A stretch of 39,017 bases of DNA from Candidatus Gottesmanbacteria bacterium RBG_16_52_11. GTDB taxonomy: Bacteria; Patescibacteriota; Microgenomatia; UBA10105; UBA927. Positions 14,693 to 33,684 of the stretch are shown here, in pieces; position 1 is the stretch's first letter, and the number at the start of each line of letters is the position of its first letter. The stretch lies in the NCBI GenBank assembly GCA_001779095.1, contig MFJD01000008.1, forward strand, positions 1,873 through 40,889, read 5' to 3'. The position numbers were made by a program, and so were the translations under genes. The notes under the pieces were generated by a model, which saw only the letters and a program-made list of their open reading frames with translations, was not told the origin of the DNA and made no database searches.

Positions 14693-14700
14693 GTAATTTT

Positions 14701-14709: not shown

Positions 14710-14723
14710 GAAGTGTCGTTAAA

Positions 14724-17212: not shown

Positions 17213-17772
17213 GTACCTTGCCCTCCCTTCTTTTTTTGGAGGAACGAGTACTTTTCCCGAATCTTGCCTATTGAGTCCGATAGGGGTTTGTTCTTATAAG
17301 AAGGCGATTTTTCTTTGTCTGTCTCAAATCGCGAATATAAATTCTTATCTTTGTTTTCATTATTATTAGTGGTTGTTGGTTGGTTGCTGGTTGGTAATTC
17401 TGATGGTTGTTCGGATGGTTGATTGGCAGCGAGATTCAATCCAAAAATGCCATCCGCCAGATATTCACCAACGGTGTAGCGCTTGGTTGCTCGGATGGTT
17501 CGAATGAGACGGAATCGAACTAACTTCTCATAAGCAGACCTGTATTCACCTTGCGTAAGTCCCAACTCCAGAGATAACTTGATTCTTCCTGTAATAAATT
17601 GACGGGGTAGTAAATGAATGTTTTCACCATTCCAGGCTACATCTCCTTCGACTCTCCTGGCTCTACGGGCAAACTCAGCAAGGAGATGAAATGTTTTAGG
17701 TGATTGCCGAAGCCAATCTGGAATCTCTCGATAGTGGTATATGTAGGTAGATTTACTTGTAGCTGTCTCCAT
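17209..17772 (-). CDS. Phage-type replication initiator (winged-HTH N-terminus)
   Basis: RQFITGRIKLSLELGLTQGEYRSAYEKL resembles the phage replisome-organizer HTH; NQP-repeat linker; SD GGAGG. Confidence 0.7.
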   Translation of the reverse strand: METATSKSTYIYHYREIPDWLRQSPKTFHLLAEFARRARRVEGDVAWNGENIHLLPRQFITGRIKLSLELGLTQGEYRSAYEKLVRFRLIRTIRATKRYTVGEYLADGIFGLNLAANQPSEQPSELPTSNQPTTTNNNENKDKNLYSRFETDKEKSPSYKNKPLSDSIGKIREKYSFLQKKKGGQGT

Positions 17773-18046
17773 ATAAGCCTCCGTTTCGGTATCCGTCTCT
17801 ATTTCTCATCAGCCCCAAAAGCTCCTCCCTTCTGGAGAAAAGCTCTCGTGCCACAGCAGTCCCGCCGTTTACATACTCCTGGACTAACTGCCTGCATTTA
17901 CTGGGGTCTTGAAAAACAAAAGTGAAATGTCGTGGCGTGTCGGGGATAATATCTACAAGGCGGGCTTGATTACAAAGCAGAAAACTACAGACGAGCAAGT
18001 CATCACTTCTATACAACTGATTTTCGGTATCGGTTTGATTTTTCAT
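17753..18046 (-). CDS. DUF5659-like small protein
   Basis: YRSDDLLVCSFLL..LVDI..FTFVF pattern; first gene of the replication operon. Confidence 0.6.
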   Translation of the reverse strand: MKNQTDTENQLYRSDDLLVCSFLLCNQARLVDIIPDTPRHFTFVFQDPSKCRQLVQEYVNGGTAVARELFSRREELLGLMRNRDGYRNGGLYGDSYK

Positions 18047-18063
18047 AGTAAGCGTTAGGCCAC

Positions 18064-18089
18064 AAAAAAAGCAGCTCCTTTGAGCTGCT
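18064..18089 (-). terminator. Intrinsic terminator/attenuator upstream of the replication-integrase operon
   Basis: Minus strand: agcagctc-aaag-gagctgc followed by T7. Confidence 0.8.
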
Positions 18090-18306
18090 CATCAGTTACA
18101 CTCAAACGGTTGTCCTGATGACACACTCAAAGTGTGCATTTCATCAGGGCTAGGGATTTAGGGTTGTCTCTCGAATTACTCTCCGAGGTTTTGCCTTCCT
18201 ATCCTTTTTCCCTTACGAACCGTTTTGGGCCTAGCTAGCGTCTACTTGAAACTTGAGGTTTCGTTCACCTAGCAATATCCGCTTACTTGGCTATTCAATT
18301 TTCAAT
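18090..18306 (-). ncRNA. Candidate structured leader RNA
   Basis: Nested stems 18104-18111/18218-18225, 18114-18121/18141-18148, 18122-18127/18131-18136, between a promoter and a terminator. Confidence 0.5.
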
Positions 18307-18312
18307 AATTTT

Positions 18313-18341
18313 ACTGTAGCAATATATAACTAAAATGTCAA
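18313..18341 (-). promoter_or_regulatory. sigma70 promoter driving the leader and replication operon
   Basis: Minus strand TTGACA-17 nt-TACAGT with extended TG. Confidence 0.7.
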
Positions 18342-18556
18342 TATAGACCGATATGACGGGATAAACCATGTAATAAATATCAGACTCTGAAGTGCTAGAA
18401 GCAGGAAAAGAAACTAGTGAAAGATTCAAGCATCATCAAGGTATCCCGTACCTTCACTCACTTATAATAAGCCACATAGATTTATATATAAATAATCCAT
18501 ATATGATTTATATAAATATAAACAATATAGAGATACGTCCTACTTTTTCGTCTCCA

Positions 18557-18787
18557 TCAGAAGGGCAAGAGCTTGGTCGAAGGTACTCCGAGCGCGGTAG
18601 CAATCTTGAAAATAGTATTGAGTTTTGGATTACGATGACCATTTTCAATTTCGTTTATCGAAGTCAAGTCCATCCCTATATCTAGCGCTAAATCCTCTTG
18701 AGATTTCTTGAGCTTCAATCGTACTGCTCGCACGTTCTCACCAAACGTTCTTCTCACCTCGTTTTCTTTCAATTTACTGCCTGGCAT
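18557..18787 (-). CDS. XRE/Cro-CI family HTH transcriptional regulator
   Basis: FGENVRAVR..SQEDLA..INEIENGHRNPKLNTIFKIATALGV; likely ATG at 18787. Confidence 0.92.
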   Translation of the reverse strand: MPGSKLKENEVRRTFGENVRAVRLKLKKSQEDLALDIGMDLTSINEIENGHRNPKLNTIFKIATALGVPSTKLLPF

Positions 18788-18788
18788 A

Positions 18789-18817
18789 TTGTCTTTATGC
18801 CAAACTGGAGCTATAAT
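18789..18817 (+). promoter_or_regulatory. sigma70 promoter of cargo genes, divergent from XRE
   Basis: TTGTCT-17 nt-TATAAT immediately beside the XRE start codon. Confidence 0.6.
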
Positions 18818-18887
18818 GTCTTTGGCATAAATGCCATATCGAAGCTGAGCGCACACGCAGGCAACTAGTGATAGTTGCTGTTTTTGT

Positions 18888-19409
18888 ATGAAGAAGAAAA
18901 TTGTCATCATTACCGCAATTTTAGTTATGGCGTTACTTGTAGTCGTAGTTAGTCAATCGAAAGAAAAACAGACCACACAGGGCGCTACAGACTGCCAGAA
19001 AGTGGCCATCAATCCACAACCTACCCCTTTTGTGATGAGCGAACCGTTTGACCCGACCAAAGCGCCAGAAGGCAGTGAGTTCTATATGCTCTCCAACCAA
19101 TCGTCTCCCTGGACAAAAGAGTCGTTTGATGTAGACGGGGACGGCGACCCTGAAGACATAATGACTGCAAACCTGGCCATGAATCATACTCCGCACTTAC
19201 TCAAGATTGTAAGAGATAACAAAGTTATCTTTGAAGCTGAAGGTGCGAACATTTATGCAGAAGCTGTAGAAGACGGCGATGGTTTTGTTCTTGGTCTAAC
19301 TACAGACTGGAATACCAATCAAACCAAGCGCACCATGTACGAGTACAAAGATGTCGGTTTTATGCCTACCTGGTATCAAGAAAATTGCAAAACCTATGAC
19401 AATAACTAA
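18888..19409 (+). CDS. Secreted/membrane-anchored hypothetical protein
   Basis: MKKK plus hydrophobic helix; DVDGDGDPE Ca-binding-like motif. Confidence 0.75.
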   Translation: MKKKIVIITAILVMALLVVVVSQSKEKQTTQGATDCQKVAINPQPTPFVMSEPFDPTKAPEGSEFYMLSNQSSPWTKESFDVDGDGDPEDIMTANLAMNHTPHLLKIVRDNKVIFEAEGANIYAEAVEDGDGFVLGLTTDWNTNQTKRTMYEYKDVGFMPTWYQENCKTYDNN

Positions 19410-19617
19410 TCCACTTACAAGTCTTGTTATCTTTACTGTTGCTCTTTTTAGCATTATCCTGGCTTTTGCCATCTGGGGTGCAATGAGCAGTAAGGGCGCA
19501 AGGACTACTCAGTTCAAAGAAAATCTAATAATCGTATTCGGTCTCATCCGTAGTTATTTTGTGTATCTAGTGATAATTGCACTGATAGCTCTGGCATTCC
19601 GCTTTCTAACGAAATAA
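19396..19617 (+). CDS. Small two-TM membrane protein
   Basis: ATG at 19396 overlapping the previous gene; two hydrophobic segments. Confidence 0.6.
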   Translation: MTITNPLTSLVIFTVALFSIILAFAIWGAMSSKGARTTQFKENLIIVFGLIRSYFVYLVIIALIALAFRFLTK

Positions 19618-19667
19618 GCCGCTACCAGGCGTATTTCTGGTATAATCGGGGCGTTACTTAGGATGAA

Positions 19668-20660
19668 ATGAAACAATTATTTACAGGTAAAAAGAAGCTG
19701 ATAACAATACCTCTTGCCATTCTTTTGGGCTTGGCGTTTCTCCCGTTTGCTATTGCTGTTTTGTTAGTTTGGTTAGTAAATAAAAAAGTAAGTAATAAAA
19801 AGACTCGTTACGCTTCATTCGCCACAATAGGTTTATTTACTTTGTTCTTTGGAAGCGCTTGGGTAGTGGCTATGTCTTCACCGAGCAAGCCTACTCAACA
19901 AAAAGAACAACCCACAGTACAAGTTGACCAAAACGTCTCACAGGCGACAAAACCGATAGAACCTGAAACCTCCCCTACAGTCTTCAAAGCACAAACAGCG
20001 CCGAACAATCCTAACCTGGCACTCGCAAAAGTCGTGGCTGTGATTGACGGAGACACAATAGATGTTGACTTGGGCGAGGGAAATGTAAAACGGGTGCGCT
20101 ACATTGGAGTTGATACTCCCGAGAGTGTTGACCCAAAACAACCGGTGCAGTGTTTCAGTAAGGAAGCGACAGCCAAGAACAAAGAGCTGGTTGAAAATGA
20201 AATTGTAGGGCTTGAGAAAGACGTATCTGAGACAGACCGATACGGTAGACTTCTGAGATACGTTTATATGGGCGATTTATTCATCAATCATGTCCTAGTA
20301 TCTGAGGGTTACGCCAGCGCCATTTCGTATCCTCCCGACGTAAAATACCAAGATAAACTACGAGAGGCAGAACAGCAAGCCAGAACATCTTACAAAGGAC
20401 TCTGGGGTTCGTGCAAAACTGCCACACCTATGCCCACAACTTCCACAAGTACAACAAACAACAATACCTCAACTGGAACTACTACGGGCAGCGGTGCATG
20501 TAAGTATTCATGTACGAGTCCTGATAGGGACTGTTCTGATTTTTCATCTCACGATGAAGCCCAGGCGTTTTTCAACTGCTGCGGATTTACGGCTCAGAAT
20601 GACCCGATGAAACTAGATGCAGTTGGTGTGGGTGATGGAATAGCTTGCGAAAATATCTAA
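19668..20660 (+). CDS. Membrane-anchored thermonuclease (SNase family) with C-terminal Excalibur-like Ca-binding domain
   Basis: VIDGDTI, VRYIGVDTPE, DRYGRLLRYVY, KGLWG; DRDCSDF..AQAFF..LD..GDGIACE; TGGTATAAT upstream. Confidence 0.92.
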   Translation: MKQLFTGKKKLITIPLAILLGLAFLPFAIAVLLVWLVNKKVSNKKTRYASFATIGLFTLFFGSAWVVAMSSPSKPTQQKEQPTVQVDQNVSQATKPIEPETSPTVFKAQTAPNNPNLALAKVVAVIDGDTIDVDLGEGNVKRVRYIGVDTPESVDPKQPVQCFSKEATAKNKELVENEIVGLEKDVSETDRYGRLLRYVYMGDLFINHVLVSEGYASAISYPPDVKYQDKLREAEQQARTSYKGLWGSCKTATPMPTTSTSTTNNNTSTGTTTGSGACKYSCTSPDRDCSDFSSHDEAQAFFNCCGFTAQNDPMKLDAVGVGDGIACENI

Positions 20661-20687
20661 GGAGCGACTGAATAATTTCTTATTACC

Positions 20688-23600
20688 CTAACCTTCTTCT
20701 TTTACTTCTAGAGCAATACCGGCATTCTCGTCCTTCAGCTCAAACTTCGTACGCTGAAATACTTTGAGGTGCACACGCTTCTGATATTCTCGATATACCC
20801 CCGCTTTGTCCTTTGTCTCTCCAGTTTGTTTATCTTTTAGAATGTCTGGGTTATCCCGTATCATCGTCTCAAACAGTGATTCCGTCATGGGCTCAATCGA
20901 AAACTTGAATTGTCCATCAGTCTTTTTATCCACTCTCAGTTGATGTATCCGTCCAAACTTCCTAATGTCTATCAAGATAACCTTTTCCTCATCTCCTGGC
21001 CCTGGTACTTGAAAAATAGGAACTCTCATAAATAGTCCATAAAATCCATGTAAGTCTGACTTTTCTGGCACTTGCCAACGCTGCGTGAATTTCTTGCTTC
21101 CATGTAGTTTTTCAGTAACCTTCCAACTACTTACCAAAATTGCATCGCAGTGATAGCCCAGAGTGCGTAATACTCTTATTCTCTCCTCAAGCTCCTCCTC
21201 TATATTTACCGAACTAATGTTTTGTTTTTGTTTTGTTTTTTTATAAATTTCATTGAAAAAATGGACATCATCGCTTTGTCCCATGGATGAGCCATAGTGG
21301 TCTCCGAATCCACCATAATCCTTGCTACTGTTGGCGATAAACAATTCCTTTAGTTCAAGCCTATTGTATCCTAAAGTACCGGTTTTTCTCCCTCTCAGTA
21401 CCACGTCGGTCTCATCCAGAAAAGCCTTTTTAGCCTCAAACAGTTTCCTTATGGTTACGTTTTTTGTCCAGGCTTTCATAAATTCTTCACGGAACTTTTC
21501 TATTGCCTCTTCTTCAAGTTCAGCATCTATGACATGCTGCTCTTCCTTTTCCTTTTGCGCCACTACACCTCTCTCGTGAGCTTGTATCAAAACATCACCT
21601 TTCACTAATTCATCGGTAGTTATGATGCCTTCAAACTTCCCTATGTTATCTTTTATTTTCTGTACCATCTTTTGCAGTTTTTCTTTGACGTAATTTAGAC
21701 CGCCTGAACTAAAGTATTCATCATCCTCCGGCGTAGGAAGTGCGACAAGATTCGCGTTGCCCGCAATTCCGATAGCTTTGATTCCAGCAATACAATAGAA
21801 CTCATCTAACCAACTGTCATCAATCCAGTGACCCTCTTCATCATCAAACTGGTCTGAGTCCCACCAGTGCCACCCATAGGTATCACCAAAGCTCCTTTTA
21901 TCAAGATGAAAGTACAACTCATAAATATCTTTGAATGAACCGAGTGCATAGAACTTGGGCAGGTTCTCAATTCCAAACCTCCCCTTTGTGCTCCCCGCAA
22001 GCCTGCGGCGTAATAGCCACGCTCCAAGGCCAAACTTGATGCCTTTCTTATGTTGCGCAATTAGCTTGTTTATTCCAGCTACCCGTTTTGCTATCGAAAG
22101 CTGTACTTCTAGTTGAGCCTTACGGTCATCATCCTTCTCATGCAGTAAATCAAACTCAATCATATCTACATCATGCCTAGTGCTCCTGAAATCACGAGTG
22201 AGATTCTTGAATAACTTCTCGAATCCACTCATAAACTCGTTGAACGCCTTTGTGTCCGAGTAATCAATCGAGCTTTTTATCAGATGTTGTAATACGAGAA
22301 GTATTTCGATTACATATCCAGCGACAAGTTCCTTGTCTTCATCTGATTCCATCAGATGGTTGAACTTTCGACCTAACTCATAGTCGCTGAACTCTTTTAG
22401 ATGTCGCCATACACGGTCAACGATGAGGCTGTCGTTTGTTTTGTAATGCTGTTTGTAAAAAAGATAGGCGTTGTAATATAGATATACCGCCTGTTTGAAT
22501 AACAAGTGGTCCCTATTACTCATCGAAAGCTTCATCATGCGAACAGGGAAATACAATACATCGGTTATCAAGTCTTTGTTTTGACTTTTTATGGCTTCTC
22601 CAATTACCTCCCTTAGGTTACTTTGAATAAGAACCATGGAACGTGTCTCAAGAAACGCTTCTCTTGAAGCTTTGAAGTCAAAACGTGCACCAATTTTCGC
22701 CAAGGAGCTATATATTATTTCTAAAGCGAGATAAAAGTTATCAAGACTCATCGAAAGGTTTGCTTTTACTCCCTTCGTTATAGCCGATACGGCCTGGTCT
22801 CGAATCAAGTCAAAAGTACTGCCCACATCCTCAGTTCTGGCAGATTCGGCCTCTCTCGTTTTGTAGAGTCTACGGATTCCTTTCTCTATGTCCTTGGAGT
22901 AGTCATCTTCGTGGAGCCTTGCCATAACATTGTCATCGGGCACAACCTCGTATCCAACTTGTTTGGTAATGACCAACTTCTGGCCCTTCCCGCTAATTGT
23001 CTTTTTGAGTCGTTTCACTACATTGGGTATTGCACCAATCTTTATATCTGAAACGAACAACTTCCTCTCGGTTGGTAATCTTATGGGGTAAAGCTCGTCT
23101 CTGAAATCTGAACCAAAACCGATATACCCTTCTTTTTCACCTGTATTCATAAGCAGGTTTCCAGCAATTCGGTGAAATATCTCTTCAACAATAGCCTTCT
23201 TGATGATTCCCTCCAGCGCTTTGTTTGTTGCCTGTATTATTTCACTTGGCTCAACAAGTCGGACAAGCCTCATAAGTAAATAAACAGTTGAGAAGATGGT
23301 GATGCAGAATATCCAAAGCGAGAGACCAGCAAGTAACACAGTCCAACTGTTGCCGTCTTTGTCAACAAACGTAGATATTCCTAACGGTATCAGCGCAACA
23401 AGGTTTACCAACAAGATTTCTTTGTACCGAAGTTTTCTAACGACAAACGAAAACGTTTTAGCGGCAATACTTTCTCCGCTGCGTAGAAGTTCAAAGATAA
23501 ATGTGATGCTAATGAAGGTTACTGCCACTACCGCCGCATCAATCTGCCAGAGAGTTTTCAAAAAAGATGAATCGCCGTGTATCTCGATGAAAGTCTTGAG

Positions 23601-23996
23601 ACTCGGAAAACTACCTATTCCTGACCTCCCCCACACAATTATCAGAAGTAGAGCAGACAAAACCCAGAAAATCATCCCTCCAAGGTTCGATGGGTTCAGC
23701 AAGTTAGCGATTCTCAATTCAAGCCGAGGTGCAATTACTGGCGCAAGCGTAAGGTACACTTGTGATGATAGCCACCGCAACTGATTCTTGAAGAAATAAT
23801 TTACACCACTCAACAATAAAATCCCTGCCACTATTATCAATGCAGTCTGAGGTAACACACTCGCGAATGAGAATATGTAAGCAAGAAGCAGTAGAGAAGC
23901 TACTAAGAAAAGACTCAAAACGAGGTAAAATCTATCTCTATGCTTTTCAAGAAACTGTAAAAACCTTGTGTTTGAAAATAAATAATACCAGCCCAT
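20688..23996 (-). CDS. 1102-aa protein: multi-TM N-terminus (DUF2254-like), helical middle, C-terminal domain of possible HK97 fold
   Basis: Long ORF; several TM helices in the first ~245 aa; domain calls are by eye. Confidence 0.8.
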   Translation of the reverse strand: MGWYYLFSNTRFLQFLEKHRDRFYLVLSLFLVASLLLLAYIFSFASVLPQTALIIVAGILLLSGVNYFFKNQLRWLSSQVYLTLAPVIAPRLELRIANLLNPSNLGGMIFWVLSALLLIIVWGRSGIGSFPSLKTFIEIHGDSSFLKTLWQIDAAVVAVTFISITFIFELLRSGESIAAKTFSFVVRKLRYKEILLVNLVALIPLGISTFVDKDGNSWTVLLAGLSLWIFCITIFSTVYLLMRLVRLVEPSEIIQATNKALEGIIKKAIVEEIFHRIAGNLLMNTGEKEGYIGFGSDFRDELYPIRLPTERKLFVSDIKIGAIPNVVKRLKKTISGKGQKLVITKQVGYEVVPDDNVMARLHEDDYSKDIEKGIRRLYKTREAESARTEDVGSTFDLIRDQAVSAITKGVKANLSMSLDNFYLALEIIYSSLAKIGARFDFKASREAFLETRSMVLIQSNLREVIGEAIKSQNKDLITDVLYFPVRMMKLSMSNRDHLLFKQAVYLYYNAYLFYKQHYKTNDSLIVDRVWRHLKEFSDYELGRKFNHLMESDEDKELVAGYVIEILLVLQHLIKSSIDYSDTKAFNEFMSGFEKLFKNLTRDFRSTRHDVDMIEFDLLHEKDDDRKAQLEVQLSIAKRVAGINKLIAQHKKGIKFGLGAWLLRRRLAGSTKGRFGIENLPKFYALGSFKDIYELYFHLDKRSFGDTYGWHWWDSDQFDDEEGHWIDDSWLDEFYCIAGIKAIGIAGNANLVALPTPEDDEYFSSGGLNYVKEKLQKMVQKIKDNIGKFEGIITTDELVKGDVLIQAHERGVVAQKEKEEQHVIDAELEEEAIEKFREEFMKAWTKNVTIRKLFEAKKAFLDETDVVLRGRKTGTLGYNRLELKELFIANSSKDYGGFGDHYGSSMGQSDDVHFFNEIYKKTKQKQNISSVNIEEELEERIRVLRTLGYHCDAILVSSWKVTEKLHGSKKFTQRWQVPEKSDLHGFYGLFMRVPIFQVPGPGDEEKVILIDIRKFGRIHQLRVDKKTDGQFKFSIEPMTESLFETMIRDNPDILKDKQTGETKDKAGVYREYQKRVHLKVFQRTKFELKDENAGIALEVKEEG

Positions 23997-24145
23997 GTGT
24001 TTCGTTCCGGTTTGTAGCTAATGGGCAGATTCAAGCTGCCCTAATTATACGACTTTTGGCTTGATAGTTCTACTTCATCGGGTAGATTTTGTGTTAATTT
24101 TGTAGTTCATTTTTATTTATCGTATAATCCACTTATAAGATAAAA

Positions 24146-24658
24146 GTGAAAAAGCAATTATTTATTTTTCTTTTGGTGGGACTTGTAATCGGCGGTGCAT
24201 CGGTTTATTTCTCCCTTCAATTCAAACCGATGCCCGTAAAAGAAACCGTTTACAACACAGGAATTGATAGAAAAGCCAACATTCAATTCTCTTGTTCACC
24301 ACTAATTGGTACTACACTTTTTCCTGAAACTCGACCAGGAGATGAGCAGTTTGATGTTGAAGCAAGCGCGGTAAGAGATTCTACGTCCATAGCGCTCGAG
24401 GTTGAAGGTGATACTCTGAAGTTTCTCACAAACACATCCGTTGAAACTGGAAGTATGGAGCCTGCTAAGTTCCAGATTATTGAAAACACAGACAAGAGGC
24501 TTACGGCTCTTGGTCTAACCGAGGGAACTACTGACCGAACCATAAACGCCCTGGTTGTTGATAAGAAAACTGGATTAGGTGTATGGTCGAAAACATCAAC
24601 AACGAGTCTCATCCCAGACGTTCCTAACAGCCAAGCGTATTACTACTCCTGCAACTAG
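24146..24658 (+). CDS. Secreted/membrane-anchored hypothetical protein
   Basis: GTG start, N-terminal TM, two Cys, beta-rich; TATAAT upstream. Confidence 0.75.
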   Translation: MKKQLFIFLLVGLVIGGASVYFSLQFKPMPVKETVYNTGIDRKANIQFSCSPLIGTTLFPETRPGDEQFDVEASAVRDSTSIALEVEGDTLKFLTNTSVETGSMEPAKFQIIENTDKRLTALGLTEGTTDRTINALVVDKKTGLGVWSKTSTTSLIPDVPNSQAYYYSCN

Positions 24659-24825
24659 CAGACTCCTAAGTTCGAGTACCTCAACTAGAAGTAATAATTT
24701 TCACTGCGGACTCTTTCGAGGTCTTATACCCTTTGGGATTCTGAAAAACTGGGTGGGTGGGCCCTATTTCTGACGTTCTCGTGCCTCTGGAAGTTGATAT
24801 ACTAAGATAGGACAAAACACACTAT

Positions 24826-25308
24826 ATGGAAAAACCTAAATTTTCAATTACACACAAAGACGAGGAAATGCTGGAGCTTGTAAAAGATAGTCAACATAAA
24901 ACGTTAGCCATCTGGGCTATTGACTGTGCTGAGAGAGTATTACCATATTTCGAAGAACAATATCCAGAAGACCAACGTCCTCGAAAAGCCATCGAGGCAT
25001 TGCATGAGTGGATAAAATCAGGTATGTTCAGCATGGCTGTTATCCGCAAGGCATCACTTGACTCCCATACTGCTGCTAAGGAAATTGGAAACGATAATCC
25101 AGCTAGTTCCGCTGCCCATGCTGCTGGCCAAACAGTGGCAACTGCACATGTTCCCCGACATGCTTATGGCTCTGCTGTCTATGCCCAACAGGCTATCTTT
25201 AGGGCCACTGACTTGTCCAAAGCCAATTCTGCCGTCACTAAGGAACGAGACTGGCAATACCAACACCTGCTTGAGCTAGGTAGGAATGCTCTAAAACCAA
25301 AACAGTAA
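24826..25308 (+). CDS. Imm5-like putative immunity protein
   Basis: LAIWAIDCAERVLPYFE..PEDQRPRKAIE..AAHAAGQTVATAHV..HA..ERDWQ. Confidence 0.85.
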   Translation: MEKPKFSITHKDEEMLELVKDSQHKTLAIWAIDCAERVLPYFEEQYPEDQRPRKAIEALHEWIKSGMFSMAVIRKASLDSHTAAKEIGNDNPASSAAHAAGQTVATAHVPRHAYGSAVYAQQAIFRATDLSKANSAVTKERDWQYQHLLELGRNALKPKQ

Positions 25309-25312
25309 GCAT

Positions 25313-25423
25313 TTACACGGTAGCATAGGTGTATTGTGGTTGTAGGTCAAACCGCTTGAGGGTATAATAGACACGTTCGAAGTAAGCCAGTAATGAGTTC
25401 CAGTTCTGACTCAACTGGCTCAC
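25313..25423 (-). other. Orphan 3' end of the integrase gene (attP-form C-terminus) at putative attR
   Basis: From the core GTGAGCC the frame reads VSQLSQNWNSLLAYFERVYYTLKRFDLQPQYTYATV-stop, ending 4 nt from the convergent Imm5-like stop. Confidence 0.65.
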
Positions 25424-25446
25424 AAGTAAGTACTTCAGACCGGGTA

Positions 25447-25484
25447 CAACGGCAGATCCGGCGCAGCCGGAATTTTTTAAGCTA
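25447..25484 (+). pseudogene. Second degenerate tRNA-Lys remnant with palindromic hairpin
   Basis: caacggcaga + tccggc-gca-gccgga + (att)ttttaagcta; same tRNA flanks as 14736-14772. Confidence 0.8.
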
Positions 25485-25666
25485 CTTTTAAGTAAACGCA
25501 AGAACATCGTCCTCCTCAATTAATTACGAAGCTTATTCTCCTGTGTTAAATACACGAATAGAGATAAAAATTCAAAGTTAATGAATTTACTATCAATTCA
25601 TAAAATCTTCAAAAGGAATAACTAATAAATACTGCTCTAATCAAACGATTAAGATATAATAATATT

Positions 25667-26305
25667 ATGACAAAACCAAGGAATAAGATTAAATTCATCT
25701 ATCTTGACGTAGGTGGTGTCTCAATATTGGATTTTTCCGGCACTGATCGCTGGGTACGAATGTTAGAGTCTATGGGCGTGACAAGTGATATTTATCCAGA
25801 ATTTATGAATATCTGGAATAGCCATCATAGTGAGATCAATACCATATATGACGTTGAGCTTATGATTAATGAATTTCGTGAAATCGGATTAAATTTACCC
25901 GACGATTACTGCTTTAATGACGAATTTGTTAAGCGCTTTACACCAAATGAAAGTATTACAAAACCAATAAATAAAGCTATAGAATATGGCATAAGTGTTG
26001 GACTACTTACGAATATGTATCAGAGAATGTTCAAAAAAATATCTGATGCAAATTTATTACCCCGAATAAACTTTTATCCAATTATTGATTCAAGCTTACT
26101 TGGTGTAGCAAAACCTGATATAAAAATATATGAAATTGCATTGAAGGAAATAAGTTATAAACCTCAAAATGTATTATTTGTAGATAATTCCATACCCAAT
26201 ATAAAAACTGCACAACTACTGGGATGGCAAACTTACCTTTATAATCCCAGAAATCCGATTAAATCATCAAATGAATTATTAGATATTATAAATATATCAA
26301 GATAA
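25667..26305 (+). CDS. HAD-IA family hydrolase (YihX-like), very AT-rich
   Basis: LDVGGV motif I, LLTN, AKPD, LFVDNS. Confidence 0.9.
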   Translation: MTKPRNKIKFIYLDVGGVSILDFSGTDRWVRMLESMGVTSDIYPEFMNIWNSHHSEINTIYDVELMINEFREIGLNLPDDYCFNDEFVKRFTPNESITKPINKAIEYGISVGLLTNMYQRMFKKISDANLLPRINFYPIIDSSLLGVAKPDIKIYEIALKEISYKPQNVLFVDNSIPNIKTAQLLGWQTYLYNPRNPIKSSNELLDIINISR

Positions 26306-26780
26306 TAAATCATACCGTCTAGTACATCAGAATCTATTCTTCACGAAACAGTATATCCACAAAAATAAACCAAATCTAAATCTTCATTAGATGTTGGAAT
26401 CGGATTTGGCAAACGTGCTTTTTAAATACTTGAATTTTTTTAATGGTTCGCTCACTGATTCCGTTATTTTATCAACTGACCGCTTTGCTATTTTTGTTAA
26501 ATATGTTGACGCATACTATTTTGAGTATATTCAGCATTTCTGTTTAGCATACCGTAATTAATAGTCCCGTAAAACGCAAAATATTCACTTAGATTTCGCA
26601 AATAACTGTAGAAATTACGTACATTTAGGAAAATTGAAGACAGTAATACCTGATTCCGGAGAATGATAGGTATTCTTATACCTTGTCAACGGGAGTCAAG
26701 TATATTATTTTATACTTGGAGCGTAATTTATTTCCGATATTTATTTAGTTTATTCTAAAATCACTGCTGCAATTATTTTA

Positions 26781-29150
26781 TTGCTGGCAGGGTATTATTT
26801 TTGTATTTTCCCCCCGGAACAGGTATTCTCTGCATCATCATATGGTTGGACGAAATTGGTGACTGCACCAGACCAGCAGCATGTATCCGATGTTGCCGTA
26901 GACGCTTCGGGAAATGTCTATTTCACGGGGTCTTTTTACGGAACAGTGAATTTCAATCCTGCCGGTTCTGACGAGTACACGGCCAGCGGTGTCGGAGACG
27001 TATACATAACCAAATACAGCAGTGACGGTACCTATGATTGGACAAAAACGTACGGGGCCGGAGGCTCAGACAGTGGTAGCCATGTCGGGTTTGATAACTC
27101 CGGAAATATGTATTTGCTAGGCGGATTTTCAAATACCGTTGACTTCAATCCCGGAGGAGATGATGGAGTTCTGTCCGATGGCGGATCGCTTAAATCGTTT
27201 TTAATAAAATATACGATTGACGGTACTTTTGTCTGGGTAAAACTGCTGCAGGGCAGTAACCAATTTGAAATTGAAGTTTCAGGCAGTATTTTCTTGGTTG
27301 GTTCTTTTCAGGGCACTAAAGACTTCGATCTTGAGGGGACGGGGGACAGCCATTCGTCCGACAGCTCAACCCGTGACGCATTCATTACCAAACTGGATAC
27401 CGACGGAAACTATTTCTGGACAAAGACCTGGGGCAGCACGGGAGCAGATTATGCTTACAGCATATCTCTGGATAATTCAGAAAATATGTATATATCCGGC
27501 ACCTTTGTGGATACTGTTGACTTCGATCCCGGTAGCGGTACGGACAATCAAGTTTCACTTGGTTTAAGTGATGTATTTTTGACCAAATACAGTAGTGACG
27601 GTACTTATGATTGGACCAAAACGTACGGCACTGCCGACGATGAAAATATTTCCCAAAATTATCTTGCCGTAGAACCCGCCGGCAATTCGTATATTGGGGG
27701 ATATACGAGTCTTTCCGGAAGCTGCATGGCGCCACCGTGCAGCAGCGGATTTCTCCTGAAGTATGACAACGACGGTACACAGGTATGGACAAAGTCGTTC
27801 GACGGTGCCGACTCCAACGCCCCCGGTCCCGTAGCCGCGGACGCATCGGGAAACGTATATTTGGCCGGGTATTTCGGAGAGGGGCTTGACGATTCCGCTC
27901 CTTCTATAGACCTCAACCCCGACGGAACACCACAGGTCAGGACAGGAACCGGAGCCGAGGAAATTTTCCTGGTCAAATACAAGAATGACGGTACATTTGA
28001 TTGGGCTTATACTATTGGCGGCACTACGCCATGGGATCCGGACTGGGGTTATACCTTTTTTGAAACCGCTATACCCAACGACGTCACAGTCACCGACAGC
28101 GGTACCCTCTACATTACAGGTACCCTATCCTCGGGTACGGGCACAGGATTCGTGAAAGATCCGGATGATGTAACTCACACAATAAACGGTATAAACAGCG
28201 ATCTCGACGATTATTACAATGTAATCCTGACAAAAATTTCCGCTGCAGCTTCTCTTTCTGTCAGCTCATCTTCCATTTCCGACTTGCTTAACTCCAATGT
28301 CTTCGAAGCCCAGTCCGATACCGATACGGATGAAATCAACGTCAACCAGGACGTACGAATAACCGTATCATCGGGCAGCAATACCGATGAGGTGCTAATA
28401 AACGACGGTACGGTCATTTCCTCAACAGACGGCTTAAACATCAATCCGAGTCTGCTCGAGGTATCAATACCGGAATTAACACAAATGCAGAATTTAGGCA
28501 GCGACGATTCACTGATAGGGGCTCTGCAGTGGGGAATACCGAGTATCGGGTTACAGTTTAGTGAGCCTATAACAATAAAATCGTACGTCGGTACGCAGTA
28601 TGACGGTGAGACGCTGGAAATAAAAAGATCCATTTCCGGGACTTCGGAATGGACTACGGACGGCATTGTAGCACCCGGTACCTGTGTTGTAGATGATGGC
28701 TATTGTGAGTTCCAGACAACAAAGGCTTCATATTTTGCCGTATTAAGAAATAATGTAATTGAAGCGGCAGTATCGGGCAGTTCTTCAGGTGACGCTTATT
28801 CCTGCGGAGACGTGAAACCCATCGGTGTGCCGGATCTGTTTCAGATAGATACTTATAATGGAAAAGCAGCCCTTTATTTCACGCCGTTAGCGGACACCGA
28901 CAGATATTTTATATCTTTTTCGACCAAATCCTTTGCTGAAGAACACGGAGCGGACATTATTCTCGGTAATCTGGGAGTGCAGTTATTCGAAGCCAATTAT
29001 TTGACTCCTGACACAACATACTATTTTAAGGTACGGGGACAAAACGGCTGCATGCCCGGGGACTGGAGCACTACCATGAAAATTACAACTCCCAACAAGC
29101 ATAAAAAGACTCCAAGTATTTTCTACAAATATTCGTTTTTATTGTTATAA
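26781..29150 (+). CDS. Secreted SBBP-repeat beta-propeller surface protein with C-terminal fibronectin-III-like domain (true start may be upstream)
   Basis: Repeats of VAVDASGNVYFTGSF / TVDFDPG / DVFLTKYSSDG..W; C-terminal LTPDTTYYFKVRGQNGCMPGDWS. Confidence 0.85.
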   Translation: MLAGYYFCIFPPEQVFSASSYGWTKLVTAPDQQHVSDVAVDASGNVYFTGSFYGTVNFNPAGSDEYTASGVGDVYITKYSSDGTYDWTKTYGAGGSDSGSHVGFDNSGNMYLLGGFSNTVDFNPGGDDGVLSDGGSLKSFLIKYTIDGTFVWVKLLQGSNQFEIEVSGSIFLVGSFQGTKDFDLEGTGDSHSSDSSTRDAFITKLDTDGNYFWTKTWGSTGADYAYSISLDNSENMYISGTFVDTVDFDPGSGTDNQVSLGLSDVFLTKYSSDGTYDWTKTYGTADDENISQNYLAVEPAGNSYIGGYTSLSGSCMAPPCSSGFLLKYDNDGTQVWTKSFDGADSNAPGPVAADASGNVYLAGYFGEGLDDSAPSIDLNPDGTPQVRTGTGAEEIFLVKYKNDGTFDWAYTIGGTTPWDPDWGYTFFETAIPNDVTVTDSGTLYITGTLSSGTGTGFVKDPDDVTHTINGINSDLDDYYNVILTKISAAASLSVSSSSISDLLNSNVFEAQSDTDTDEINVNQDVRITVSSGSNTDEVLINDGTVISSTDGLNINPSLLEVSIPELTQMQNLGSDDSLIGALQWGIPSIGLQFSEPITIKSYVGTQYDGETLEIKRSISGTSEWTTDGIVAPGTCVVDDGYCEFQTTKASYFAVLRNNVIEAAVSGSSSGDAYSCGDVKPIGVPDLFQIDTYNGKAALYFTPLADTDRYFISFSTKSFAEEHGADIILGNLGVQLFEANYLTPDTTYYFKVRGQNGCMPGDWSTTMKITTPNKHKKTPSIFYKYSFLLL
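27009..27628 (+). repeat. 47-nt intragenic duplication (27009-27055 and 27582-27628)
   Basis: Both encode TKYSSDGTYDWTKTYG, with three synonymous differences. Confidence 0.85.
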
Positions 29151-29389
29151 AGACTCTGTTTTAATGATCAGTTAAGTCGGAATAATCTTTCCATAATAAC
29201 CGTACATCCGTTGCGCCGATCCCGTATCAGCACAAAAGCCGACGCACACCGGCAATTTCCTGTCCTCAGCAGGACGGAAAATCGTTTCATTTCCGTTCTT
29301 TTACTCCGTCCAGCCTCCTAACTGGTAAATACGGGCCATTATGAGAAAATACGACTGTGGCATAAAAACTCCCGGGTAATAAATTGCAT

Positions 29390-31369
29390 ATGGCCGGAAT
29401 TATTTTATTCAGGATACCGGAAACCGTCTGGTTTGTCCTGTTTGTGACACTGGTAATATATCTTCCGGGAAGATTCGTCAATTTAAGCCTGTCACTTAAA
29501 CCCAAATCTTACCTGCGCCCGTTTCTGGATTTCATGACCGGGATCGTCATGTTCACGCTAACGGCATATGCCTTCGCTTGGCTCAGGGCGGATTTCCTGA
29601 CGCCCGCCGCACTGATTGTGACCGCAGTTATCTCTGTTATCAGGTTTCCATTCGGCAGAATACGTCTTCCCCCGAATTTCTGGTACGTATTTACGTTTCT
29701 GATTGTGTGTGCCGTGCTTTTCAGTCTCCCGCTGACCCTGACCGGAAGGATCGGGGATACGTTTCTTCAAAGAGGTGACGATCTGGTCCATCTTTCCTAT
29801 ATCAACGAATTCAGATTTGCTTTCCCGCCGCAGAATCCGAATCTGGCCGGTACCAGGCTTCTCGGATATCATTTTTTCTATGATTTCCTGGTAGCCAGGA
29901 TTTCGGTAGTGTCGCATATTTCACCGCTGTCAGTTTATTATCAGCTGATGCCGCTGACGGTATCATTCCTTTGGGCTCTGGGGTCATATTCGCTGCTGAA
30001 ACAATGGGCAGGAAATAATGTTACGGCCGTTGCCGGAACGTTACTGATCATGTTCGGAGGGAGTTTCGGCTATATTCTCGGTTTCCTCGGTCATCCGGCT
30101 CCTGATTTAAGCAGCGTATTCGGCATTAACCAGCCGGCTTCGGCGCTCCTGAATGTTCCGTTTGCTTTTTCCGTCCCTCTCATCCTGTCTGTTATCGGAA
30201 TCCTTTTTGAATATTACCGGACCGGTAACCGGAATATTCCTTATCTGCTCATACCGGTTGTCGGAAGTTCCCCGATGTTCAAAATCTATGCCGCAATGAT
30301 TGTGTTTTCCGCAATGGGAATTTTTACCTTAATGGAATTATTCAGAGGTAATTACCGGATTCTGCTGGTCGATTTCGGAATAGCATTGACAGCCGGTCTG
30401 ACATACGGATTATTTTCCGTATCAGGATCGGGTCTCACCTACTACCCGCTTTGGCCGGTTTACCGGATGCTTGAGCTAAATCTTCCGTGGTACGGGTTTA
30501 CCGAAAAGATGTATACATTCACCCGGCTCCATGTCGTCCGGGGCATCATTTCGGTACATGCATACGGATTATTATTATTTTTCGTAGGCAATATAGGGAC
30601 AAGATTTATCGGAATTATACTCATATCCGCTTCGCATCTGGTCAAAAAAAAGCTGCCTTCACGTATTTCTGTGACAGTCATCACAATGGGTTTAGCATCG
30701 GTCGGGATACCCTTATTTTTCATCCAGACGATTAAAGGTTTTGAAATGATCCAAATGACATGGTACTATCCGTTATTCTGCTCCATTCCAGCTGCATTCG
30801 GTATCGGACTTCTGGCCGGAAAAAAATACCCCCTGAAATTCAGGGTTATCACCGGTTCGGTTTTATTTTTCCTAACGGTACCTTCAGCGTATGAAAATTA
30901 TGCCAGATTCATTTATCCGTTGCTATCAATCCCCAGGGTGAGTGTTAACAGTCCGGTCATGAAGGCTATGACATTTCTTCAAACACACGGAACATATGAT
31001 GATACGGTTCTGGAAATCCCCCCAAAGGATTTTAGCAGAGGACAGGATGTCGATAATTGGTACCGGAATGTCTCTACAATGTTTATTCCCGCCCTGGGCA
31101 ACAAGCGGGTTTATATTTCCGATCGGGATGTGGACTATCCGGGACTTGATGTAGGCACGCGGCTTAAGATTTTAGCACAGGTATTGGATTTAGAATTCGG
31201 ATATTCAGGCATTAACCGGTCAGATACGGTAAAAGAAACATACGGGGAGCTCAGGAAAGCCGGTATTAAATACATATATTCGCCGGGACCTCTGGCATCC
31301 TTAAAGGGACTGTCTCAAGCCAGTGAAGTTTTCGGTGAAGCGGGCTATTATATTTATGAGCTTCGTTAA
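29390..31369 (+). CDS. Polytopic membrane protein, probable GT-C-type glycosyltransferase
   Basis: Many TM helices; first loop GDDLVH..PPQNPNLAG..YHFFYD; soluble C-terminal domain. Confidence 0.65.
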   Translation: MAGIILFRIPETVWFVLFVTLVIYLPGRFVNLSLSLKPKSYLRPFLDFMTGIVMFTLTAYAFAWLRADFLTPAALIVTAVISVIRFPFGRIRLPPNFWYVFTFLIVCAVLFSLPLTLTGRIGDTFLQRGDDLVHLSYINEFRFAFPPQNPNLAGTRLLGYHFFYDFLVARISVVSHISPLSVYYQLMPLTVSFLWALGSYSLLKQWAGNNVTAVAGTLLIMFGGSFGYILGFLGHPAPDLSSVFGINQPASALLNVPFAFSVPLILSVIGILFEYYRTGNRNIPYLLIPVVGSSPMFKIYAAMIVFSAMGIFTLMELFRGNYRILLVDFGIALTAGLTYGLFSVSGSGLTYYPLWPVYRMLELNLPWYGFTEKMYTFTRLHVVRGIISVHAYGLLLFFVGNIGTRFIGIILISASHLVKKKLPSRISVTVITMGLASVGIPLFFIQTIKGFEMIQMTWYYPLFCSIPAAFGIGLLAGKKYPLKFRVITGSVLFFLTVPSAYENYARFIYPLLSIPRVSVNSPVMKAMTFLQTHGTYDDTVLEIPPKDFSRGQDVDNWYRNVSTMFIPALGNKRVYISDRDVDYPGLDVGTRLKILAQVLDLEFGYSGINRSDTVKETYGELRKAGIKYIYSPGPLASLKGLSQASEVFGEAGYYIYELR

Positions 31370-31610
31370 AGCCATCCATAAATGTTAACAACGGTGCCGA
31401 ACCTGAGGTTTTTAAGAACATCGGATCGCAGGTTACTTGGCACAGCTGGTCACTGCGTTTCTTTACACATACAAAAACCCGGGGTACGAATCCCACCGCA
31501 CTCAACGTGCCATATTACCGGTTCAGAATTTCCGGATATGGCGGAAATATTTAAGGTAATCAATAATTACCGCTTGAAAATTTTTATAATTTGTAATATG
31601 AATAATACTA

Positions 31611-32987
31611 ATGTTCCGTAAAATTATCAGCACACTCATTACTACCCTCGCAATTCTTTTTATAGGGTCATCAGTTTACGCGCAGACTGCGACCCACGTG
31701 CTGTACGATGATGCACTCCGGAATTCCTGGGTGTCCTGGTCATGGGGTAGTACCGTTAATTTCAATGACACATCGAAGCCCTTAGCCGGTACCAATAACA
31801 TCCGCTGGACAGTAAACAGCGGGTATGCCGGTCTGTACCTGCATAAGGATGGCGGTGTGAATACCTCGGGCTTTTCATCCGTCAGGTTCGCGGTTCAGTC
31901 AGGACAGTCGGGGGACGAATTGTCGGTACTTGCATACGGGGCAAACGACCGGGAAATCGGTCCGCAGCTTTTTCTCACCAATTACGGAGGGAATCCCGTA
32001 ACGGGAAGTTATAAACAGTATGCGATACCGTTGGCTGATCTGGGAGCCGCCAATACACAGCTGTACGGGTTTCAGATCGAGGACGAGACCGGCTCCTCCC
32101 GGCCGGCCATATTCGTCGATTCAGTCGAACTCGCCGGAACCGGCGGCATTGCGCCTACACCGACTCCGACGCCGGCCTCCGGACCTACTCCGACGCCCAC
32201 CCGGACGCCGACACCTGCCCGGACACCGACGCCCACCCGGACGCCGACTCCGGGAATCACTAATACTCCGGTTCCGACACCGGTGGTATCGGCAACGCCT
32301 TCACCCACCCCGCAGCCTGGTAACGGCTTCAACCGCGCCGTTGTGAGCCTTACATTCGATGACGCATCCAAAACCCAATATACGAACGGCTGGCCGGTAC
32401 TTTCAAAATACGGATTCCGGGCGACTTTTTACCTGACTACCGGCAGCCTGGACGGCTACTGGTATATGACACCGGCCATGGTTGTCGCTTTGGCAAACTC
32501 AGGTAATCATATGGGGAGTCACACCATCAACCATCCGGATCTGACAACTCTGACTTACAACCAGGTCGAAAACCAGCTCAGCCAGCCGAAAAACTACCTG
32601 GAAAATCTGCTGGGTGTGGCAGTTAACGATTTCGCAACTCCTTACGGCAGTTATAACGCGATAGTGCTGTCACAGATTATGCGTTATAACCGGTCACACC
32701 GGACCGTAACCAGCGGGTACAATACCAAAAACGGGATGAATTTTTCGCTGCTTAAAGTTCAGAATGTCCTTCGGTCAACGTCCGCCACCCAGATCACCAA
32801 CTGGGTCAATCAGGCCAAATCTGACCGGAGCTGGCTGATTCTGGTATATCATGAGGTGAAACCGAGTCCCTCGCAATGGGATGTAACCTCTGCCACGCTG
32901 GATAGCCACCTGAATGCCCTTAAAAATTCGGGCGCCGCGGTCGTTACGGTCGGACAGGCGATAGCCGAAATATCCCCCCAACTTTAA
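31611..32987 (+). CDS. Secreted polysaccharide deacetylase (CE4/NodB) with N-terminal carbohydrate-binding-like module and Pro/Thr linker
   Basis: Signal peptide VYA|Q; [26 protein letters not shown]. Confidence 0.9.
32152..32315 (+). repeat. Pro/Thr linker-encoding low-complexity repeats
   Basis: ccgacgcccacccggacgccgac at 32190-32212 and 32226-32248. Confidence 0.8.
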
Positions 32988-33052
32988 CTACACGGTAAAT
33001 ACCCGGGAACGATGAGACCGCTTTGGATTGACTGATTTGGTATGATACTGGC

Positions 33053-33427
33053 ATGTATGAATTTCTGGAGGAAATCCGGGACGAAGCGGAGGATTTTTTT
33101 GAAGATATATGGGAATACTTCCTGCACCGGAAACACCCGAAAGTCCGGAAAATCAGGCAGGTTGAGGTTAATGGAGTCCTGACGAAAGTCCGCCCGGCTT
33201 ACCTGTTTGCCGAACGGATCGACAACCTGCTTAAGATGGTTTTCGCGGCATCGATCACGTTTTCCGCATTCATGGCTTCATATCTGGGTTATACCAAACT
33301 TTCTGACCTTCTGGACGTCCTGATCCGGACCTTTGCCGGGCGCATACTGATGATTGTCATCGGTGTCAGCATGCTGCTTTCATCTTTCTGGAAGCTAATA
33401 AACCTCAGGGCTGCTGATACAGCTTGA
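33053..33427 (+). CDS. Hypothetical membrane protein
   Basis: Acidic N-terminus, two TM helices; TGGTATGAT 6 nt before ATG. Confidence 0.75.
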   Translation: MYEFLEEIRDEAEDFFEDIWEYFLHRKHPKVRKIRQVEVNGVLTKVRPAYLFAERIDNLLKMVFAASITFSAFMASYLGYTKLSDLLDVLIRTFAGRILMIVIGVSMLLSSFWKLINLRAADTA

Positions 33428-33461
33428 TATTTCCCCGGATACCGTCATTACGCTTATAAAT

Positions 33462-33650
33462 TCAGGTTTTTTCGGACGGAATGATTATCCAGCAGATGAT
33501 ATAAGGCAGTAGTCCGGGAATTCCGCCGGGGACTAGCGCCAGAAACCAAAGTATCCGGACAACCGATACGTCGATCCGGAAATAATCGGCAAATGCCAGA
33601 CAGACACCCGCCACCTTTCTGCCCCTCGCCGGACGTATAAGTTTTTTCAT
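33462..33650 (-). CDS. PspC domain protein
   Basis: KKLIRP..RKVAGVCLAFADYFRIDVSVVR..YIICWIIIP. Confidence 0.93.
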   Translation of the reverse strand: MKKLIRPARGRKVAGVCLAFADYFRIDVSVVRILWFLALVPGGIPGLLPYIICWIIIPSEKT

Positions 33651-33684
33651 ACAGGTTCAGTATACACGACGGTTTTCGGCCATA

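Follow-up and report, generated by a model that had tools for sequence, protein, structure and literature searches.

A hairpin-bearing partial tRNA-Lys copy in a Candidatus Gottesmanbacteria genome and its probable origin in a GIY-YIG nuclease cassette

The stretch of DNA analyzed here, 39,017 nucleotides (nt) of contig MFJD01000008.1 from Candidatus Gottesmanbacteria bacterium RBG_16_52_11 (hereafter the window), holds one intact gene for a lysine tRNA and two partial copies of it, both of which carry a GC-rich hairpin at the same tRNA position. The question raised by this locus is what the second of these copies, the element at positions 25424–25484, is, and how it came to lie 10.3 kb beyond the gene that it resembles. 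A preliminary description, made from the letters of the window, had taken the copies for tRNA-Lys remnants. We consider it reasonably probable that 25424–25484 is the decayed downstream hairpin unit of a selfish cassette of the homing-endonuclease type, which is composed of a GIY-YIG nuclease gene and a tRNA-Lys gene and is widespread in Patescibacteria; such hairpin units make better sense as pieces of a mobile cassette than as plain remnants.

Hairpin units around the intact tRNA-Lys gene

The intact tRNA-Lys gene (anticodon UUU; 15022–15094, plus strand; Rfam tRNA, 72.9 bits; also called by ARAGORN) is the sole tRNA gene in the window and the sole UUU copy in the genome. The combination CAACGGCAGA...TTTTAAGCTA occurs at 15034–15062, inside this gene, and again at 14736–14772 and 25447–25484; these three copies are all that the whole 1.47-Mb genome contains, with a chance expectation of 0 in 100 dinucleotide-preserving shuffles. 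The stretch at 25447–25484 repeats nt 13–22 of tRNA-Lys and the anticodon loop, with a GC hairpin of six base pairs (bp) standing for nt 23–30, which confirmed the earlier claim of a second tRNA-Lys copy with a hairpin at the same tRNA position (0 matches in the 100 shuffles). In both copies, the hairpin lies directly 3' of ...GGCAGA, ending at tRNA nt 22, and 5' of the anticodon loop, where it takes the place of the eight nucleotides GCAGTAGC, i.e., nt 23–30 of the intact gene, comprising the 3' half of the D stem, nt 26 and the 5' strand of the anticodon stem. With one strand each of the D stem (3') and the anticodon stem (5') missing, the units would be unable to fold as tRNA. The tRNA finders (ARAGORN and Rfam) called only 15022–15094, with no cloverleaf at either unit, and no Rfam family matched either of them. 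An intron in the tRNA, of group I or of the bulge-helix-bulge type, was considered and rejected, as eight nucleotides are replaced rather than cleanly interrupted and no Rfam intron family matched.

The upstream unit (copy 1; 14724–14772, plus strand; 64.9 bits with covariance model R1) consists of tRNA-Lys nt 1–22, identical to the intact gene at 22 of 22 positions, the hairpin TCCGCC-ggct-GGCGGA (14746–14761, plus strand), whose stem is present in the minimum free energy (MFE) fold, and the anticodon loop together with the 3' strand of the anticodon stem (cttttaagcta). A TATAAT motif stands just upstream of it. The downstream unit (copy 2; 25424–25484, plus strand; 33.0 bits with the same model, E 1.1e-6) is the element under study and reads, in this order, aagtaagtacttc, a decayed 5' part, caacggcaga, the 15-nt hairpin TCCGGC-gca-GCCGGA (25457–25471, plus strand) and attttttaagcta; a T-rich tail at 25472–25481 follows the hairpin. 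In its 5' part, only nt 13–22 align to tRNA-Lys (shuffle p 0.007), and no significant match to the tRNA 3' half was found downstream of it (p 0.065). Reading both stems bore out the description of one C-G pair turned to G-C between the copies; the loops measure 4 and 3 nt in copies 1 and 2, respectively, and the spacer behind the stem is c versus aatt. The motif aagtacttc, said earlier to resemble aaatacttc, does match it at 8 of 9 positions, the two lying 10 and 12 nt upstream of caacggcaga, respectively. The hairpin of copy 2 satisfies a terminator-like rule (6 pairs, tail ATTTTTTAAG).

Between copy 1 and the intact tRNA lies an open reading frame (ORF) for a GIY-YIG nuclease of 92 amino acids (aa) (14772–15050, plus strand; PF01541, E 1.3e-10, residues 4–73), for which NCBIfam gave no match. 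The ORF starts at an ATG that overlaps the end of copy 1 and stops at a TAG within the anticodon stem of the intact tRNA-Lys. A promoter-like site, TTGAAG-18-TATATT (14979–15008, plus strand), is located inside the 3' end of this ORF, 14 nt upstream of tRNA-Lys; one such site was found versus 1.6 expected, so that it stands out by position only.

Recurrence of the cassette and covariation of the hairpin

In an exact-pattern scan of 185,579 species genomes (one per species), at least 119 stretches matched, mostly from Patescibacteria. The cassette, as it recurs there, consists of a GIY-YIG gene for about 90 aa that abuts an intact tRNA-Lys (UUU or CUU) in either order, with partial tRNA copies on one or both sides, each of which has a GC palindrome of 15–16 nt in place of nt 23–30. 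Among the 80 titles listed for these matches (loci L032–L111), 52 named Patescibacteria groups, 22 named other phyla and 6 gave no group. The 22 were mostly automated "Gammaproteobacteria" assemblies, together with Pseudomonadales, Nevskiaceae, Clostridia and Bdellovibrionales. At least one "Gammaproteobacteria" contig (L049) encodes the very GIY protein that is found in G017, which belongs to the window's own family. This casts doubt on these labels, which are probably binning or labelling errors.

Within the set of at least 119 loci, the order unit–GIY–Lys was found at 40 loci by a strict rule and at 8 more that the rule had missed, unit–Lys without GIY at 31, Lys followed by a unit within 60 nt at 21, and Lys–GIY–unit at 13; units stood on both sides of the tRNA at 14 loci, and 7 had the full order unit–GIY–Lys–unit. 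Altogether 28 loci fell outside the layout rule, including the 8 that it missed, most of them because the stored stretch ended or no tRNA-Lys was called. The GIY-YIG ORF adjoins tRNA-Lys in at least 61 of the 119 loci listed (upstream in 48, downstream in 13), and the anticodons of the tRNA-Lys genes at these loci were ttt in 57 and ctt in 49 cases; the loop following the hairpin matches the anticodon of the neighboring tRNA-Lys gene. A hairpin unit, a small GIY-YIG ORF and tRNA-Lys occur together in other genera and families (genomes G017, G010, G025, G030, G033 and G275). Here, the hairpin is TCCGCC-agct-GGCGGA in G017, CCCGGC-agct-GCCGGG in G010 and TCCGCC-cga-GGCGGA in G030, while the G033 cassette lies at a tRNA-Lys(CUU) and has CTCTTAA after its hairpin. 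In several genomes, a TATAAT resembling a -10 element stands just upstream of the upstream unit.

Upstream units keep the 5' end of the tRNA and stop near nt 43. Downstream units elsewhere are near-whole tRNA copies that have lost the first 3–16 nt and retain nt 31–73; in some of them, further copies of the palindrome are present, a second one within the T loop and a third one within the 5' part, and the T-loop hairpins share an additional conserved tail, caggc. Tandem arrays of units of 65–70 nt exist as well. At the syntenic rplS-yraN-tRNALys-cofE-like locus, G008 is without a cassette and G003 has a remnant only; in G002, no hairpin unit was found in the 60 nt upstream of its tRNA. A strict pattern applied phylum-wide matched 2 of 401 genomes, which means that either the cassette is patchy or the pattern is too strict. 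In a tree of GIY proteins, the Lys-associated genes cluster with a support of 82, and the arrangement changes at least 11 times and the anticodon type at least 18 times, in a topology that is poorly resolved. The possibility that the flanking units are halves of a tRNA other than the intact one was tried with the 3' strand of the anticodon stem and set aside, as the comparison does not discriminate: among 12 loci, the upstream unit equals the intact gene in 9, the downstream unit equals it in 9, and the two units equal each other in 7.

A second cassette of the same design, with a different hairpin, is found at tRNA-Asn(GUU) in the genome of the window (G000; contig C1:108134–108650, minus strand). 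It begins with a 5' tRNA copy whose D loop has received a long GC hairpin as a clean insertion, continues with a GIY-YIG ORF that is interrupted by an in-frame TGA, and ends with the intact tRNA. The same D-loop hairpin variant occurs at a tRNA-Lys in G027 (L010).

The preliminary description had proposed a covariance-model scan for further copies. With a model built from 50 units, units scoring at least 49 bits turned up in 17 of 151 genomes of the class, G000 included, and a variant in G530, which makes at least 18 of the 151. The many matches of 43–45 nt that score no more than 40 bits are ordinary tRNA-Lys genes, the single match in G479 among them. Removal of these ordinary tRNAs and of antisense matches to the palindrome left 28 distinct units, in which 167 of 168 stem-pair cells are paired. 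Six stem types were present, five of them fully complementary: TCCGCC/GGCGGA in 19 units, TCCGGC/GCCGGA in 5, and CCCGGC/GCCGGG, TCCGTC/GACGGA, CCCTCC/GGAGGG and a broken stem in one each. The broken stem belongs to the decayed cassette of G025, whose GIY gene has two stops. Double-sided changes at three of the six pairs preserve complementarity, in agreement with the earlier suggestion that the structure of the hairpin may be under selection, and the covariation score was reached by none of 500 shuffles, a comparison made on the unfiltered alignment, which has other rows mixed in and was fitted to the model.

The swapped pair itself had been regarded as a compensatory change; a mutation in place was not supported. 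The hairpin of copy 2, loop included, is identical in G539 (L173), a genome of another family, and its stem TCCGGC/GCCGGA is also found in G549 and G453. Since both subtypes recur in other genomes, the two hairpins in the window are two pre-existing subtypes, which suggests two cassette lineages and two separate arrivals at the locus.

A serine-recombinase island and the proposed ancestral order

Copy 2 is separated from the tRNA by an integrated island of 10.3 kb (15095–25423). The island has a GC content of about 41% versus about 52% in its flanks (ranges 0.39–0.45 and 0.49–0.56), and a gene for a large serine recombinase (14891–16768, minus strand; resolvase domain PF00239, residues 6–125; no name in NCBIfam) lies directly 3' of tRNA-Lys at the onset of the low-GC stretch, its frame staying open antisense through tRNA-Lys as far as 14891. 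A resolvase-type catalytic domain, defined ends and a foreign composition are thus all found together. The 7-bp direct repeat GGCTCAC is present at 15088–15094 (plus strand), the 3' end of tRNA-Lys, and, as read from the sequence, at 25417–25423 (plus strand); the sequence before the right copy, gagttccagttctgactcaact, resembles a tRNA T arm. Homologues of the recombinase stand beside the 3' end of tRNA-Lys in G030 (58% identity) and G007 (41%), where both contigs end within the element. The stretch 25385–25423 (aGCCAGT...ACTGGCTcac), just inside the right end of the island, forms a 7-bp inverted repeat around a T-arm-like sequence and may be the island's tRNA-like attachment arm.

The right boundary was obtained from the comparison of four public sequencing runs with positions 13000–28000 of the window. 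In run X4, two contigs that belong to a related element agree with the window as far as 25425 and 25423 and then diverge: the former, of 1085 nt, also matches 24308–24760, and the latter, of 347 nt, continues for 295 nt unlike the window. The right end of the island therefore lies at about 25423, just before copy 2. Taking out 15095–25423 leaves 24 nt between the discriminator base of the tRNA and caacggcaga, the distance that the preliminary description had given as about 24 nt; from the tRNA end to the AGATCC of copy 2, it is 31 nt, inside the range of 10–54 nt seen at other loci. The ancestral order remnant–nuclease–tRNA–remnant that had been put forward thus receives support from the full layout at seven other loci and from the position of the right end. 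The other part of the proposal, an empty allele in which the tRNA is followed directly by copy 2, had no counterpart in the metagenome contigs or in the four runs. Since no island-free allele was recovered, the ancestral order is one that we infer. Within 13000–28000, no contig of the four runs joins across the island, X1 and X2 yielding only pieces of 300–440 nt at a depth of about 3.

Relatives have the order rplS – yraN-like – tRNA-Lys(UUU) – cofE-like. In the window, the cofE-like gene is at 34449–35207, and material beyond the island has therefore also accumulated here. The approximately 9 kb between copy 2 and this gene (25424–34448) are genes of low to mid GC content, including those for a HAD hydrolase, an SBBP-repeat protein, an unknown protein of 661 aa, a polysaccharide deacetylase and an NAGPA-like protein, and may be older inserted material. 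The cargo of the island includes an SNase-domain protein (19668–20660), a protein of 1102 aa with no Pfam match (20688–23996, minus strand) and an Imm5-like immunity protein (24826–25308).

A proposed mobile cassette, a dispersed palindrome and competing explanations

In the explanation that we favor, the GIY-YIG nuclease would break the DNA of tRNA-Lys, and repair from a cassette-bearing template would copy the nuclease gene together with tRNA sequence, so that one working tRNA would be kept while displaced or duplicated tRNA pieces would stay beside it. The palindrome would take away strands on which the D stem and the anticodon stem depend, leaving the duplicates unable to fold as tRNA, and would split 43 nt of homology into 22 and 13 nt, making the duplicates recombine less readily with the working gene. 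Homology broken in this way would guard against deletion of the nuclease gene or corruption of the working tRNA, and the hairpin-bearing duplicates might themselves resist the nuclease. In addition, the stable hairpin of copy 1 might reduce transcription that runs on from the tRNA promoter into the nuclease gene, and the hairpin and T tail of copy 2 might end the tRNA transcript. In the window, a unit of the TCCGGC type (copy 2) and a cassette of the TCCGCC type (copy 1, with an intact GIY-YIG gene) would have come to share one tRNA-Lys(UUU) locus; as both subtypes stand at the same locus, it was probably hit twice. The serine-recombinase island would have entered at the 3' end of the tRNA later, moving copy 2 10.3 kb away. 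As expected of a homing element, the protein has a GIY-YIG catalytic domain and the gene stands beside or inside its presumed target, with presence and absence among relatives, but a separate DNA-binding domain was not found.

The hairpin is also not tied to tRNA. The commonest loop, AGCT (57 of 174 hairpins), turns it into TCCGCCAGCTGGCGGA, a perfect 16-bp palindrome, and the next loops, AACT, AGCC and GGCT, are each one substitution away from AGCT. The pattern TCCGCC-N4-GGCGGA has 12 sites in G000, where, by our own arithmetic from base composition, about 0.1 would be expected: ten lie between ORFs, one is overlapped only by an ORF of 90 aa and one is in long ORFs. It is present in 37 of 41 relatives, with 0–36 copies per genome, while a reversed control pattern gave 0 in 40 genomes and 1 in one. 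Rfam returned only two tRNAs and a weak T-box match for 10 other palindrome sites.

Several points weigh against the selfish cassette described above. While the anatomy, the recurrence, the covariation, the dispersed palindrome and the right end of the island were observed, the nuclease activity, the target, the homing event and the role of the hairpin are all things that we infer. Pfam recognized only the catalytic domain in the 92-aa protein, leaving about 20 residues outside it, and with no recognizable DNA-binding module sequence-specific homing is not assured. Moreover, the working tRNA keeps nt 23–30, so that a nuclease cutting there would also have the cassette's own tRNA as a target. 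Copy 1 and the units of the CUU type (tail CTCTTAAG) fail the terminator rule that copy 2 satisfies. No more than 2 of the 12 palindrome sites in G000 lie in tRNA-derived fragments, relatives having up to 36 sites, and the numbers of palindromes and GIY genes are not proportional (10 versus 1 in G031, 1 versus 6 in G001). The empty or island-free allele was absent from the metagenome contigs, where the exact 32-nt pattern of copy 2 had 0 matches. Finally, in the sample obtained by exact pattern the stem is fixed from the outset, the one obtained by covariance model favors hairpin-like sequences, and the GIY tree is poorly resolved (89 columns, 10 of 90 branches starred).

Among the rival explanations, it is possible, though we think it unlikely, that the palindrome is a site of action at which the GIY-YIG protein or another recombinase cuts or recombines, the GIY gene and tRNA-Lys moving between palindromes by cut-and-paste or by Campbell-style integration of a circle, with the dispersed palindromes as landing pads or footprints. 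Palindromes do bracket the cassettes, with GIY and tRNA in either order, and integration of a circle through a unit-like site would produce exactly the observed unit ends, the upstream unit keeping the 5' end to about nt 43 and the downstream one, without its first 3–16 nt, keeping the 3' end. A perfect 16-bp palindrome would also fit a dimeric DNA-binding protein, and the G003 remnant ends in what appears to be the left half of one. However, palindrome halves split by an insert were not found among the scanned loci, where seven of seven apparent half-sites proved to be full palindromes that had been cut or had acquired point mutations; in G000, the dispersed palindromes outside the tRNA-Lys locus have no GIY ORF within 400 nt; the 5' boundary of downstream units varies from nt 3 to nt 16; and the TCCGGC subtype, with its variable, non-palindromic loops of 3 nt (GCA, GAA, TCA, GGT), looks as if the stem alone were constrained. 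That latter feature, stems that covary over loops that vary, would suit a role of the units as RNA, for instance as transcribed tRNA-like leaders or decoys that control translation or stability of the GIY-YIG message or present an anticodon-loop mimic to an anticodon nuclease or another tRNA-binding factor. The -10-like TATAAT upstream of units in several genomes makes their transcription probable, the hairpin is followed by a conserved anticodon loop that agrees with the local anticodon, and the fold in the window pairs CAUAGCU with AGCUAUG, burying the GIY-YIG start codon. We nevertheless give such a role little credence, since the start-codon pairing is not kept in G017, G010 and G030, the fold z-scores (-1.6 and -1.1) are unremarkable, no Rfam family matches, and the commonest loop yields a full palindrome at the DNA level.

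A mobile palindrome comparable to repetitive extragenic palindromic (REP) elements or miniature inverted-repeat transposable elements (MITEs) might instead have landed independently at a preferred spot in non-essential tRNA-Lys duplicates, with no role in a cassette. The dispersed, mostly intergenic copies described above, far in excess of chance and of the control, are those of a REP- or MITE-like sequence, which in G029 is moreover the core of longer nested hairpin repeats and in G000 occurs also in a tRNA-Cys 5' fragment and a T-box-like serS leader. Yet the tRNA-Lys units always replace the same eight nucleotides, in UUU and CUU genes and in many lineages, which is not simple insertion; the shared tail caggc of the T-loop hairpins points to descent as part of a unit; and no common flanks or target duplications were seen around the G000 sites. 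Independent landing is thus a rather improbable origin of the units. We find it hardly credible that copy 2 belongs to the island, having been brought from an earlier host as part of the attachment region without ever standing next to this tRNA. The low GC content does run past copy 2 to about 27 kb, and a second possible repeat, GCTCACTGAT, is present at 15089–15098 and 26450–26459; however, this alternative island end was rejected as near chance level (by our own estimate, about one such 18-mer with up to 4 mismatches is expected, and three overlapping matches were found), the two X4 contigs match only up to 25423 and 25425, and units commonly stand 10–54 nt behind tRNA-Lys in genomes without a visible island in between.

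A broader proposal, to which we assign a low probability, would make the palindrome the working end of a mobile element: a minimal GIY-YIG nuclease acting on the palindrome or on the replaced tRNA site would carry a module of its own gene and a replacement tRNA-Lys into tRNA-Lys genes and convert every spare tRNA-Lys copy into a palindrome-marked dead copy, while the palindromes that it seeds would be REP-like landing sites or footprints across this class of Patescibacteria. If so, it would constitute a new kind of bacterial mobile element.

With regard to known systems, SegB, a free-standing GIY-YIG homing endonuclease in the tRNA gene clusters of phages T4 and T6, recognizes the T-psi-C motif of tRNA genes and spreads with neighboring tRNA genes (PMC2330249). 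Its gene is found next to tRNAs more often than elsewhere, and the enzyme cleaves within tRNA genes and gives rise to tandem repeats of tRNA and segB, a process aided by microhomology that the 5' end of the tRNA shares with the 3' end of segB; no isotype preference is reported, and donor alleles are said to be cut inefficiently (PMC13096335). The partial tRNA copies with a palindrome for nt 23–30 have no counterpart in the available portions of either account (PMC2330249, PMC13096335). The cassette shares with SegB a GIY-YIG gene wedged among tRNA genes, an ORF 3' end that overlaps the tRNA 5' end and the existence of tandem arrays; unlike SegB, it is chromosomal in Patescibacteria, encodes a protein of about 90 aa that consists of little more than the catalytic domain, and keeps to a single isotype, tRNA-Lys.

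In fungal mitochondria, free-standing GIY-YIG and LAGLIDADG genes insert in a host gene and bring along a duplicate of the gene end that they displace. There too, the nuclease gene travels with a piece of its target, and a working gene is kept with a displaced pseudo-copy beside it; however, those targets are protein-coding, and no palindrome is known to replace part of the displaced copy. The palindrome is comparable to other iterated or mobile palindromes, namely enterobacterial REP elements, cyanobacterial HIP1 and the GC clusters of yeast mitochondria, in being short, GC-rich, over-represented, mostly intergenic and conserved throughout a lineage, and differs from them in its sequence (TCCGCCAGCTGGCGGA), its low copy number (0–36 per genome) and its fixed replacement inside tRNA copies. 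The island, with its resolvase-domain recombinase at a tRNA 3' end, short direct repeat and low GC content, resembles integrative elements of large serine recombinases and is a separate element, distinct from the hairpin cassette, that split the tRNA-Lys locus.

A full-text literature search, outside of which subscription journals and supplements fall, returned nothing on a bacterial GIY-YIG/tRNA-Lys cassette or on the 16-bp palindrome. The cassette seems to be undescribed, and both the replacement of eight nucleotides by a palindrome in flanking tRNA copies and the class-wide iterated 16-bp palindrome are features new to us. If the cassette works as proposed, it would be a chromosomal, cellular counterpart of the phage SegB–tRNA association and a clear example from nature of how a selfish nuclease gene can protect an essential tRNA and yet inactivate its duplicates in a stereotyped manner. 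The conserved palindrome, common to most genomes of a Patescibacteria class, could be a protein site, an RNA hairpin or a mobile mini-element. For annotation, cassette loci yield tRNA-like fragments, ORFs running into tRNA genes, and assembly breaks.

Individual palindrome sites showed further features. On the minus strand of G000, at C14:9600–9640, the palindrome TCCGCCaactGGCGGA follows a stretch of 14 nt that agrees with the 5' end of tRNA-Cys at 11 positions; the intact tRNA-Cys(GCA) stands about 80 nt farther downstream, and there is no GIY gene nearby. A weak T-box-like leader with two palindromes is located upstream of serS, the gene for seryl-tRNA synthetase (C16:65335–65552, L153 436–653; Rfam E 7e-4, below the gathering score). 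Two paralogous structured leaders, at C1:29953 and C4:155599, each form a longer hairpin that is tipped by the palindrome; the genes that follow about 30 nt downstream (232 and 136 aa) have no Pfam match. In G029 (loci L191–L204), it is the core of several families of longer nested hairpin repeats, of which gtcatccccgcga-[palindrome]-ggggatctta... is an example, with a MITE- or REP-like appearance.

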